Part shown: positions 955 to 2,392 of the stretch, piece by piece
Numbering within the stretch: the first letter of the stretch is position 1
Layout: each line of letters opens with the position of its first letter
From: a virus
Taxonomy: Duplodnaviria; Heunggongvirae; Uroviricota; Caudoviricetes
Direction: 5' to 3' (one strand)
Length of the DNA: 6,104 bases
Virus record (IMG/VR): IMGVR_UViG_2579778721_000001
Span: 1-6,104 of that record
Notes under the pieces: generated by a model
What the model was told of the DNA's origin: nothing
Database searches by the model: none
What the model saw: only the letters and a program-made list of their open reading frames with translations
Position numbers and translations under genes: made by a program

Positions 955-977
955 AAATATTAGTAACGCGGATATTT
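955..977. promoter_or_regulatory. Putative operator (OL-type) palindrome AAATAT-N11-ATATTT overlapping the pL -10
   Basis: Inverted repeat AAATAT (955-960) / ATATTT (972-977). Contains the 9-mer AAATATTAG that recurs at 1044-1052 and, inverted, at 1671-1679 in the pR region. Confidence 0.4.
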
Positions 978-985
978 TAAGTCAA
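957..985 (-). promoter_or_regulatory. pL-like sigma70 promoter for the leftward operon
   Basis: On the minus strand: -35 TTGACT (complement of 980-985), 17-bp spacer, -10 TAATAT (complement of 957-962). About 65 nt upstream of the ATG at 885. The -10 sits inside the operator-like motif CTAATATTT. Confidence 0.45.
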
Positions 986-1042
986 CAGTATGGCGTATGA
1001 TATTTTTGATTTGGTAACTATGTAAATGTTTTTTCAAGGGAA

Positions 1043-1056
1043 AAATATTAGTTATA
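1043..1056. promoter_or_regulatory. Second copy of the operator-like 9-mer AAATATTAG (possible OL2 or secondary promoter)
   Basis: AAATATTAGT at 1044-1053 matches 955-964 at 10 of 10 positions (11 of 13 over the extended site). No convincing -35 at 17 bp, so more likely a binding site than a promoter. Confidence 0.3.
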
Positions 1057-1082
1057 CAGCTGATTTGCAGAAGTTATGGCAC

Positions 1083-1112
1083 AAAAAAACCGACTAAGAC
1101 GTCGGTTTTTTT
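1083..1112. terminator. Bidirectional Rho-independent terminator between the repressor gene and the leftward operon
   Basis: A-run (1083-1089), stem CCGAC (1090-1094), loop TAAGAC, stem GTCGG (1101-1105), T-run (1106-1112). The hairpin is followed by a U-run on either strand. Sits 27 nt past the repressor stop. Confidence 0.7.
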
Positions 1113-1138
1113 GTTGTGGATGGGGTAGTGAGCGGTGG

Positions 1139-1600
1139 CTACTGGTTACGTTTCTTTAGTGCCAGCATGTTCTCGAAGGCTTCCTCGTAGAGCTTGTTTA
1201 GTCCACGTAGCTGGTTAAGGAGTTTGGCTTTTTCTGACGCAGGTAGAATCTCGAAGAGGTTAAGTAACTCTGCCTGTTCTTCATTGACCAGCCTCCATCC
1301 TTTGCCTGAAAAGTTATCATCATAAGTATCTGATGATCTTACATAATTCATTAAGTCTTTAAGGTCTTCTCGAATGTCCTCTGGTTTTACCTTTAACAGA
1401 GCCGCAAATTTTAGCGCAGCGTCGGTATTTACCGGTATCTTGCCGTTCAGATACTGGCTAACGGTGCCTTGAGATTCGAATCCCAACAACTCAGCCGCCA
1501 GCTCTTGAGTCAGCTTCAGCTCTTTTTTTCTTGCATTCCATGCGGCTTTTAAATTCTTGCTCGCTTCTGGAGTTGCAATCACTTCGCGTGTTTTTTTCAT
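1139..1600 (-). CDS. Prophage repressor, HTH XRE/cI-type N-terminal domain, 153 aa, no S24 peptidase domain (DicA/RacR-type)
   Basis: ORF in track. The HTH segment QELAAELLGFESQGTVSQYLNGKIPVNTDAALKFAALLKV matches the lambda cI helix-turn-helix pattern ([39 protein letters not shown]). Divergent from a Cro-like gene. At 153 aa it is too short for a LexA-like C-terminal domain. No SD upstream of the ATG, consistent with a leaderless mRNA. Confidence 0.85.
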   Translation of the reverse strand: MKKTREVIATPEASKNLKAAWNARKKELKLTQELAAELLGFESQGTVSQYLNGKIPVNTDAALKFAALLKVKPEDIREDLKDLMNYVRSSDTYDDNFSGKGWRLVNEEQAELLNLFEILPASEKAKLLNQLRGLNKLYEEAFENMLALKKRNQ

Positions 1601-1606
1601 ACATAG

Positions 1607-1634
1607 AGTTTATTTGTTTTACCAATATTATCAA
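1607..1634 (-). promoter_or_regulatory. Candidate pRM-like promoter producing a leaderless repressor mRNA
   Basis: On the minus strand: -35 TTGATA (complement of 1629-1634), 16-bp spacer, -10 TAAACT (complement of 1607-1612), ending 6 nt before the ATG at 1600. Weak hexamers, as expected for an activated maintenance promoter. Speculative. Confidence 0.3.
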
Positions 1635-1648
1635 AGATAGTCTGGCTA

Positions 1649-1677
1649 TTGATCTTTAAAATTAGCGGGGCTAATAT
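1649..1677 (+). promoter_or_regulatory. pR-like sigma70 promoter for the rightward early operon
   Basis: -35 TTGATC (1649-1654), 17-bp spacer, -10 TAATAT (1672-1677). About 30 nt upstream of the cro-like ATG at 1708. Overlapped by the palindrome ATTAGC-GGG-GCTAAT (1661-1675). Confidence 0.5.
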
Positions 1678-1679
1678 TT
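1658..1679. promoter_or_regulatory. Putative OR operator palindrome (AAAATTAGCGGGGCTAATATTT)
   Basis: Inverted repeat ATTAGC / GCTAAT around a GGG centre. The right half CTAATATTT is the reverse complement of the AAATATTAG motif in the pL region and overlaps the pR -10. Confidence 0.45.
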
Positions 1680-1707: not shown

Positions 1708-1983
1708 ATGAACTTAAGAGACTATTTAAAAGAGAAACATATCACCCAGCTACAGTTTGGGAAGCTAACGGGTTTATCTCAGGTGCATGTAAGTCGAGTG
1801 CTGGGGGGCTATGAAAGATTCAGCCCTGAAAAAGCATTACGTGTTGCTGAAGTAACGAATTTCGAGGTTACACCTCATGAACTCCGGCCTGATATTTACC
1901 CGAATCCAACCGACGGCTTACCTGTTGGATTCAAGGCTAACACACCAAATGCATCGGAGTTGATTCATGAAAATCAGGCATGA
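1708..1983 (+). CDS. Cro-like early regulator, YdaS-type HTH protein (91 aa from ATG 1708; the track ORF begins at an upstream TTG at 1702)
   Basis: ORF in track. GAAGG SD (1696-1700) 7 nt before ATG 1708. Divergent from the repressor. HTH-like segment LTGLSQVHVSRVL and a C-terminal ELRPD motif typical of YdaS/Cro-type proteins (from memory). Confidence 0.75.
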   Translation: MNLRDYLKEKHITQLQFGKLTGLSQVHVSRVLGGYERFSPEKALRVAEVTNFEVTPHELRPDIYPNPTDGLPVGFKANTPNASELIHENQA

Positions 1984-2392
1984 GCACATCCGCATGGCGA
2001 TGAATGCCTGGGCGCATCCGGACGGTGAAAAAGTTCCGGCAGCTGAAATAACCCGGGCTTATTTTGAGCTTGGTATGACGTTCCCGGAATTATATGACGA
2101 CAGCCATCCGGAAGCCCTGGCTCGCAATACCCAGAAAATTTTCCGCTGGGTGGAGAAAGACACTCCTGATGCGGTTAAAAAAATTCAGGCGTTGTTACCA
2201 GCGATCGAAAAAGCAATGCCGCCTCTGCTGGTGGCCCGAATGCGCAGCCACAGTTCAGCTTATTTTCGGGAGCTGGTGGAGACGCGGGAACGACTGGTGA
2301 GAGACGCTGATGATTTTGTCGCAGTGGCGATCGCTGGTTTCAACCAGATGAATCGTGGTGGCCCTGCAGGAAATATTGTGGCTGTGCATTGA
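1967..2392 (+). CDS. YdaT-type protein (cII functional analogue), 141 aa
   Basis: ORF in track. ATG 1967 overlaps the upstream stop (1981-1983) by 17 nt, with GGAG SD at 1956-1959. N-terminus MKIRHEHI and overall size match my recollection of the YdaT family; not verified by search. Confidence 0.7.
   Translation: MKIRHEHIRMAMNAWAHPDGEKVPAAEITRAYFELGMTFPELYDDSHPEALARNTQKIFRWVEKDTPDAVKKIQALLPAIEKAMPPLLVARMRSHSSAYFRELVETRERLVRDADDFVAVAIAGFNQMNRGGPAGNIVAVH

Follow-up and report, generated by a model that had tools for sequence, protein, structure and literature searches.

The window analyzed here comprises the first 6,104 nucleotides (nt) of the IMG/VR virus record IMGVR_UViG_2579778721_000001 and represents the immunity and early region of an Escherichia coli prophage, lambdoid and of the Rac/Qin type. 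Our subject is its genetic switch, a lambda CI-like repressor gene with two divergent early promoters, together with a 9-mer (AAATATTAG, or CTAATATTT on the opposite strand) that is repeated around it. Escherichia phage Rac-SA53 is 97.4% identical to the window over positions 880-2000, several E. coli chromosomes match the stretch 880-1720 at 100% identity, and at least 80% of this shorter stretch is present in 180 of 5426 complete E. coli genomes. The repressor gene (1139-1600, minus strand) and a YdaS-like gene (1708-1983, plus strand) diverge from each other at a distance of 107 nt, a layout that is alike in all relatives among the ~120 loci with related repressors that we gathered by exact-protein look-ups as well as viral and metagenome scans, a scan of genome contigs having yielded only three. 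To the left lies a leftward operon composed of a ydfA/DUF1391 gene (730-885), a ydfB-like gene, and a ydfC-like gene (352-570), with dicB encoded farther left in the full genome, outside the window. To the right, the YdaS-family gene is followed by a YdaT-family gene and then by a DnaT-domain replication gene and a lambda P-like gene. The genes, promoters, and terminator of the switch are:

1139-1600, minus strand: repressor gene, 153 amino acids, Pfam HTH_3, with a lambda CI-like N-terminal helix-turn-helix domain
1708-1983, plus strand: Cro-like YdaS-family helix-turn-helix gene, first of the pR operon, Pfam YdaS_toxin and HTH_3
1967-2392, plus strand: YdaT-family (CII-equivalent) gene, Pfam YdaT_toxin
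985-957, minus strand: pL-like promoter, positional homologue of dicBp, with TTGACT (985-980), 17 nt, and TAATAT (962-957), found by promoter scan
1649-1677, plus strand: pR-like promoter with TTGATC (1649-1654), 17 nt, and TAATAT (1672-1677), read from the sequence
1634-1607, minus strand: pRM-like promoter with TTGATA (1634-1629), 16 nt, and TAAACT (1612-1607), found by promoter scan
1081-1114, both directions: intrinsic terminator, A7-CCGAC-loop-GTCGG-T7, directly following the repressor gene and formed by a perfect inverted repeat of 14 nt (I1)

The arrangement of the pL-like promoter is alike in relatives, with an operon of the ydfA/ydfB/ydfC type downstream. The pR-like promoter scores 8/12, just below the cut-off of the promoter scan, and its TTGATC-17-TAATAT is found in nearly all relatives at a fixed distance from the repressor ATG, across repressor identities from 99% down to ~50%. 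For the PydaS promoter of the K-12 Rac prophage (TTGACA ... TAATAT), the start has been mapped by primer extension, and mutation of TAATAT abolishes activity (PMC9638921). The first-pass annotation of this DNA had regarded the motif shared by pL and pR as independent support for the promoter calls; we find firmer support in the conservation among relatives and in this mapped homologous promoter of K-12. At pRM, 6 nt separate the end of the -10 from the repressor ATG at 1600, which is without a Shine-Dalgarno sequence, and a -10-like hexamer (TAAACT, TAAAAT, or TAGAAT) lies at the same distance from the repressor ATG in all relatives. This position implies that the predicted repressor mRNA would be leaderless, and leaderless repressor transcripts have been mapped in analogous prophages for paaR2 (PMC8630535) and racR (PMC9638921).

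The locus is quite probably an immunity switch with lambda-style operators, in which dyads of 15-17 base pairs (bp) that the repressor would bind are fused to the -10 hexamers of pL and pR. The likely operators follow the consensus TATTAGY-N3-RCTAATA, and five of them, numbered as left (OL) and right (OR) operators and given without strand, make up the core of our map:

958-974: OL1, strong dyad TATTAGTAACGCGGATA, 12/14 against TATTAGYNNNRCTAATA, overlapping the pL -10 by 5 nt
983-999: OL2 candidate, weak, 8/14, core in pL orientation ATACGCcatACTGTT, its end overlapping the first bases of the pL -35
1611-1627: OR3, strong dyad TATTTGTTTTACCAATA, 12/14, between the -35 and -10 of pRM, without the 9-mer
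1635-1651: OR2 candidate, weak, AGATAGTCTGGCTATTG, 9/14, its last TTG starting the pR -35 and the site abutting the pRM -35
1660-1676: OR1, strongest dyad AATTAGCGGGGCTAATA, 13/14, overlapping the pR -10 by 5 nt

Across the whole window, three 17-mers match the palindromic consensus at 12/14 or better compared to 0.03 expected, and none of 300 shuffles reached three. All three sites lie in the two regulatory regions, and the result is alike with a background trained on intergenic DNA only. OR1 and OL1 have identical geometry, the 17-mer ending with the first five bases of the -10, and at pR the 9-mer extends leftward into a 6-N3-6 dyad (ATTAGC-GGG-GCTAAT, 1661-1675). The 15-bp cores of the right operators (OR3 1612-1626, OR2 1636-1650, OR1 1661-1675) are centered at 1619, 1643, and 1668, those of the left operators at 966 and 991. 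The resulting spacing of 24 bp between OR2 and OR3 and of 25 bp both between OR2 and OR1 and between OL1 and OL2 is a lambda-like geometry. For OL2, support comes from this spacing and from G5, Y6, R10, and C11, which are kept in most variants. The strong OR3 dyad and the logic of pRM had been missed in the first-pass annotation.

We also looked for an OL3 at the canonical distance of ~24 bp beyond OL2 and rejected it, as there is a half-site only (TTTGGT or TTTAGT, 1010-1015) and its base 1013 is polymorphic. This lone operator-like half-site lies ~26 bp beyond OL2 (1010-1024) and reads TTTGGT in the window and TTTAGT in many natural variants, with base 1013 (G, A, or T) being the most polymorphic site of the spacer. 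In Rac-SA53 and the relatives L005 and L017, the 1010-1024 region holds an 11-bp perfect palindrome, TTAGTAACTAA.

Natural variation follows the proposed dyads. Loci with a repressor at least 97% identical to that of the window were taken as sharing its immunity (63 loci with 29 OR haplotypes). In these, OR1 has fixed arms, and its common variants fall only on core positions 6 (C/T) and 10 (G/A) and on the spacer (7-9); OR2 varies at core positions 6, 7, 10, and 13, OL1 at 3, 4, 6, and 7-9, and OR3 is almost invariant. A dyad operator would be expected to show this pattern of fixed arms and a free center. In the OR region, polymorphism (1666-1670, 1645, 1648) is concentrated in operator centers and at Y6/R10, and the linkers between operators are nearly invariant; this may reflect a tuning of operator affinity, or the linkers may simply hold the promoter hexamers.

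Farther out, dyad symmetry averaged over 13 representatives of different immunity groups and anchored on the repressor ATG shows its sharpest and highest peak at 1619, the center of OR3 (4.9/7 pairs compared to a background of ~2), and a second, broader one at 1667-1668, the center of OR1, which itself has 6/7 pairs in the window. Both dyads, OR3 and OR1, thus keep their positions even in relatives in which their sequence is different. Moreover, half-sites change with the recognition helix of the repressor: repressors whose helix ends in Q (QGTVSQ, QATVSQ) have ATTxGY half-sites, with G at position 5 in 27/30, and those whose helix ends in H (e.g., QSTVSH) have ATGAAY or ATTAAT half-sites, with A at position 5 in 32/56. 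The leading C of the 9-mer and the distal half-sites thus vary with the helix, and TAATAT survives across relatives with other helices.

The repressor itself matches structures of the lambda CI N-terminal domain over residues 12-78 (3kz3 at E = 2.6e-4 and 1lmb at E = 8.4e-4 in a phmmer search of the PDB) and Pfam HTH_3 at 38.6 bits. In a structure model, its N-terminal domain reaches a predicted local distance difference test (pLDDT) score of 78-92, and residues ~107-152 form two helices at low confidence (pLDDT 42-59). This C-terminal domain is homologous to residues 91-132 of DicA, the repressor of the Qin prophage (BLASTP, E = 8e-6), with a helical motif of the ELLxLFxxLPxxE type; a similar C-terminal motif can be seen by eye in PaaR2 of the prophage CP-933P, for which BLASTP gives no match. 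Pfam finds no S24 peptidase domain (PF00717) in the 153-amino-acid repressor; this domain is present in its more distant homologues P0023-P0030. Because the S24 domain is missing and the C-terminal helices are DicA-like, RecA-stimulated self-cleavage is unlikely as the route of induction. With regard to DNA recognition, a glutamine in helix 3 of the repressor aligns opposite Gln44 of lambda CI, a residue in contact with the adenine of position 2 in TATCACCG, the lambda half-site. TAT, with which this half-site begins, also forms the outer bases of the proposed TATTAGY, and we take this as a lead and not as a test. As a separate observation, the C-terminal segment (1139-1282, residues ~107-152) is DicA-like and, by eye, PaaR2-like, while the three N-terminal domains differ, which suggests a shared module for oligomerization or as antirepressor target that is shuffled among short repressors of the Rac/Qin type.

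The 9-mer is present in three exact copies of AAATATTAG, on the plus strand at 955-963 and 1043-1051 and on the minus strand at 1671-1679. The first-pass annotation had given the two outer positions correctly and placed the middle copy at 1044-1052. Together with what they overlap, the copies are:

955-963, minus strand: 9-mer copy 1, CTAATATTT, spanning the OL1 end nearest the promoter, the pL -10, and two T after it
1043-1062, minus strand: 9-mer copy 2 (1043-1051) and the candidate distal site S2 (1046-1062, core AGCTGTataACTAAT, 10/14)
1671-1679, plus strand: 9-mer copy 3, CTAATATTT, spanning the OR1 end nearest the promoter, the pR -10, and TT

In dinucleotide shuffles of the whole window, 0.06 copies are expected by chance, and three or more were reached in 0/200. 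Since the motif is AT-rich and all its copies lie in AT-rich intergenic DNA (39% GC compared to 50% in the window), shuffling only the intergenic stretches 886-1138 and 1601-1707 is the fairer test; here, 57 of 5000 shuffles (~1%) contained some 9-mer in at least three copies on the two strands taken together. The repeat is real and unlikely to be a product of chance. However, it is a composite of an operator end and a promoter core and not a recognition unit. Its C is operator position 11 and immunity-specific, TAAT is common to operator and -10, AT completes the -10, and the final TT is unconstrained at pL, so that only the first 5-6 bases (CTAATA) fall in the 15-17 bp dyad.

A search of homologous immunity regions for the 9-mer, as had been proposed, illustrates this make-up. 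At pR, it is unchanged in 62/63 same-immunity loci and in both relatives of 92-93% identity, and the middle copy is conserved just like the pR copy (62/63 and both of these relatives). The full 9-mer at pL is found in 51/63, where the trailing TT (955, 956) is polymorphic and ACTAATAT is kept in nearly all. None of the 48 loci with a recognition helix ending in H has the exact 9-mer at pR; they carry TTAATATTT with TAATAT retained, and the leading C is therefore the sole immunity-specific base of the 9-mer. Across immunity types and in K-12 Rac, pR retains TAATAT, usually as TAATATTT; being kept in nearly all immunity types, this hexamer is promoter sequence. The pR of K-12 Rac even reads ...TTAGGCGTCGCCTAATATTTCTG, i.e., the identical 9-mer, though its repressor RacR has no BLASTP match to that of the window.

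The view of this 9-mer as a shared operator motif therefore has to be modified. It is true that the motif contains the -10 TAATAT of both pL (962-957) and pR (1672-1677), each time oriented alike with respect to transcription. The idea of one repressor for two divergent early promoters also agrees with the lambda CI-like gene between pL and pR and with a dyad running into both -10 hexamers in the same geometry, but for one of the three copies there is no recognizable promoter. Of the longer imperfect palindromes said to surround each copy, the one at pR is clear (6/7 pairs), the one at pL is modest (4/7 by hand count), and the middle one does not hold up (3/7 against a background of ~2).

Two simpler explanations of the 9-mer have to be weighed against the dyad operators. 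It would be very unlikely, in our assessment, that the 9-mer itself is what the repressor or the Cro-like protein recognizes at CTAATATTT, with the middle copy as a genuine third operator. The excess of exact copies, their high conservation in same-immunity loci and in the 92-93% relatives, and the absence of the exact 9-mer from relatives with a helix ending in H would all fit this explanation, yet the TT varies freely at pL (12/63 loci are without the full 9-mer), the 9-mer is asymmetric while domains of the lambda CI type bind dyads, OR3 is among the three best dyads without having the 9-mer, TAATAT is kept under other helices, and the same 9-mer is found at K-12 PydaS under the unrelated RacR. 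Conversely, the 9-mer could be promoter sequence only, that is, a conserved -10 with its flanks from the promoter stock of the Rac family, with the repressor acting elsewhere. The conservation of TAATAT at pR across immunity types and K-12 Rac and the experimental validation of this -10 in K-12 speak for it, but we consider it just as improbable: the base before TAAT (C or T) changes with the repressor helix, the 9-mer extends into a 6/7 dyad at pR, the same dyad family is found at OR3 where there is no promoter in that orientation, the middle copy is conserved though it is without a -35, and a repressor site overlaps this -10 in all three characterized analogues.

The middle copy lies just left of the terminator, 63 bp from OL2 and 88 bp from OL1. 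S2 has one perfect half-site and a poor second half, and its only common polymorphism is at the spacer base 1055. The copy could be a separate element: a weak leftward promoter may have its -10 here, or the copy may belong to a small RNA on the plus strand with its end at the terminator (1081-1114). In favor of such an element, 1025-1110 is almost invariant between the window and Rac-SA53 while 987-1024 has many substitutions, ACTAATATTTTT is retained in L005 and L017 despite the different left half and flank of S2 there, and weak matches to the Rfam families STnc370 and IS128 begin at 1041-1043 on the plus strand. However, the lack of an acceptable -35 or extended -10 at its TAATAT on either strand, as judged by reading the sequence and by the promoter scan, which lists no promoter there, speaks against a promoter at the middle copy. 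The sub-threshold matches to STnc370, IS128, and FuFi-1 at ~1041-1117, obtained with Rfam in E-value mode, score far below gathering for the first two (30.5 compared to 54 and 24.5 compared to 80), and none of the three families is found at gathering score in the K-12 Rac, CP-933P, and Rac-SA53 loci. These matches probably reflect the terminator hairpin, and a separate element at this place is unlikely. Our best guess is that the middle copy may be an auxiliary, OL3-like site used cooperatively or in looping.

Two further readings are possible, if rather doubtful: that the TAATAT of pR and pL is a fixed anchor for the operators of unrelated or very distant repressors, with specificity set largely by spacing and the distal half-site, and that the middle copy (1046-1062) is a distal auxiliary operator for looping between OL and OR. 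This site would lie about six helical turns from OL2, and the repressor would oligomerize through its C-terminal domain of the DicA/PaaR2 type.

In the dyad-based switch that we favor, a repressor dimer would bind the 15-17 bp dyads TATTAGY-N3-RCTAATA. OR1 and OL1 would be the first sites taken by dimers, which would cover the -10 hexamers and so keep RNA polymerase off pR and pL, and filling of OR2 and OL2, likely cooperative, would strengthen repression. Lambda CI activates its own promoter from a site abutting the pRM -35, and OR2 in the window, which abuts the -35 of pRM, may activate this promoter as in lambda and CP-933P. OR3 lies in the core of pRM, which would start at or next to the repressor ATG, and repressor synthesis would be shut down once OR3 is occupied, either by repressor present at high concentration or by the Cro-like protein YdaS. 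YdaS may compete for the same sites, as in CP-933P but, by published report, not in K-12.

Several points weigh against this picture. OR2, OL2, and S2 are individually not above chance, no family-wide dyad peak is found at 1643 (OR2) among the 13 representatives, and OL1 is only a 4/7 dyad whose distal half-site follows the consensus loosely (ATCCGC compared to ATTAGC). The degenerate 15-mer pattern used for the spacing was derived from these same sites, so that its match count is circular. The covariation of helix and operator comes from few independent lineages, has exceptions such as L013 (helix QATVSH with ATACGT), and was analyzed with the OR1 and OR2 registers of relatives other than the window offset by 1 nt. 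Finally, YdaS of K-12 was reported not to repress racR (PMC9638921), which makes a lambda Cro-like role of YdaS uncertain here.

Features shared with lambda include the homologous N-terminal domain of the repressor, divergent repressor and cro genes with ~107 nt between them, the proposed 17-bp dyads spaced by 24-25 bp, OR1 running into the pR -10, OR3 inside pRM, a second operator set at the leftward promoter beyond the repressor gene, and the leaderless repressor mRNA that is predicted here. In lambda, too, the pR -35 begins with the final TTG of OR2. Unlike in lambda, the repressor of the window has a short helical DicA-like C-terminal domain instead of an S24 peptidase/RecA-cleavage domain, its half-site is TATTAGY and not TATCACCG, the place of Cro is taken by a YdaS-family protein and that of CII by a YdaT-family protein, the left operon is of the ydfABC/dicB type and not of the N type, and an OL3 at canonical spacing is not evident.

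With the Rac prophage of K-12, the window shares homologous YdaS and YdaT proteins, a pR of the type TTGA..-TAATAT with identical CTAATATTT, three inverted-repeat operators of the 6-N3-6 type with one over the pR -10 and a leaderless repressor promoter, both predicted in the window, and a similar operator motif (the RacR monomer site ATTAGGC is close to the ATTAGC of the window). For RacR itself, footprints cover three such repeats; O1 lies on PydaS (-10 TAATAT), and the racR promoter is leaderless (PMC9638921). However, RacR has no BLASTP match to the repressor of the window at E of up to 10, its operator arms (TTAGGC-N3-GCCTAA) are one base longer each and shifted by 1 nt relative to the -10, and its O3 overlaps the racR start codon. 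We therefore rejected the possibility that the repressor is a RacR orthologue with K-12 Rac immunity, as there is no BLASTP match and the operators read ATTAGY-N3-RCTAAT and not TTAGGC-N3-GCCTAA.

The prophage CP-933P of E. coli O157:H7 encodes PaaR2, YdaS, and YdaT with PR, PRM, PL, OL1-3, and a leaderless paaR2 (PMC8630535). Similar to the window are the operators at PR, PRM, and PL and the leaderless repressor, both of which are predicted in the window, a YdaS, which footprints the same region in CP-933P, and a YdaT box at the ydaS/ydaT junction that is perfect in CP-933P and has one mismatch in the window. Differences are that PaaR2 has no significant BLASTP match to the repressor of the window, that its repeats, which we read as TTAG-N6-CTAA, appear in the publication as palindromes of 18 bp (half-site GTTTAGTAA), and that paaR2 is followed by the toxin-antitoxin pair paaA2-parE2, of which there is none in the window. 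Direct homology to PaaR2 or RacR was thus rejected based on the absence of BLASTP matches, and therefore neither of them can be used to transfer operator specificity.

Qin, with DicA, DicC, and dicBp (PMC10448788), shares the homologous left operon ydfA/ydfB/ydfC and a short repressor without cleavage domain but with a homologous C-terminal domain, and its dicBp operator TTAG..CTAAT runs into a TAAT.. -10. Yet the N-terminal domains of DicA and the window repressor do not align by BLASTP, DicC has no match to the YdaS-like protein, and the operator arms are spaced by N6 compared to N5 in the window. DicA is antagonized by the Rem antirepressor and also switches spontaneously (PMC10448788). Looking across these systems, TTAG...CTAA arms are seen in operators of four immunity types with an inner spacing of N5 in the window, N6 for DicA and PaaR2, and N7 for RacR (read at 1660-1676 of the window, 2796-2836 of L018 for K-12 Rac, ~1850-1930 and ~2410-2430 of L123 for Qin, and ~1540-1630 of L121 for CP-933P). 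In the promoters that we read (the window, pR of K-12 Rac, and dicBp of Qin), the proximal CTAA(T) runs into the TAAT.. -10.

On the rightward side, the YdaS-like protein matches PF15943 at 30.9 bits (cut-off 30) and is 32% identical to YdaS of K-12 (BLASTP, E = 5e-7) and 28% identical to that of CP-933P. The YdaT-like protein matches PF06254 at 39.1 bits (cut-off 21), is 32% identical to YdaT of K-12 (BLASTP, E = 2.5e-14), and is homologous to YdaT of CP-933P as well. The junction of the two genes holds one further element:

1960-1977, plus strand: YdaT-box-like inverted repeat TTGATTCATGAAAATCAG, spanning the ydaT start codon, with one mismatch to TTGATT-N6-AATCAA and 0.03 expected by chance

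The consensus of the YdaT box is taken from published work (PMC9986795), and an establishment promoter at this box has been reported in CP-933P and K-12 (PMC9986795, PMC11879457). By analogy, the box of the window probably drives a CII-type establishment promoter toward the repressor gene. Farther right, two clusters of direct repeats of the GTCACG(A/G)C type (~2596-2660 and ~2871-2925, e.g., atgtcacgacatgtcacggcgtgtcac) lie within the DnaT-domain replication gene; they look like origin iterons inside an O-like gene, as in lambda.

On the leftward side, the pL leader holds two hairpins on the minus strand. One of them, ACAGC-ACGGC-GCTGT (931-945), begins ~5 nt past the predicted pL start, and the other, CGCC-ACCC-GGCG (906-917), is just upstream of the ribosome-binding site of the ydfA-like gene. 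Relatives and the dicBp leader of Qin have hairpins at both positions with partly different stem sequences, and a consensus hairpin computed for the pL leader with RNAalifold shows almost no covariation. These hairpins may stabilize the 5' end or be a regulatory site. In the more distant relatives L011, L006, L013, and L015, the pL leader contains boxB-like hairpins whose loops are GAAA or GAAGA (e.g., GCCG-GGAAGA-CGGC), which suggests N/nut-type antitermination in them, and no boxB-like element is found in the pL leader of the window. A kilS homologue was not found in 1-350, where BLASTN against the left arm of K-12 Rac matches the ydaF/DUF1391 gene only.

Overall, this switch is an ordinary example of the well-known class of lambda, Rac, Qin, and CP-933P, with an uncharacterized immunity specificity, and it leaves the current understanding of such switches unchanged. 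Its repressor joins RacR, DicA, and PaaR2 as the fourth in a small set of lambdoid repressors that are short and not cleavable. Our work provides a proposed operator map that can be tested at each base, and it concerns an immunity type that is present in ~180 complete E. coli genomes and many gut viral contigs and that controls a cell-division-inhibitor operon of the dicB type on one side and the potentially toxic ydaS/ydaT on the other. Known operators would permit the prediction of cross-immunity among Rac/Qin-type prophages and the design of reporters.

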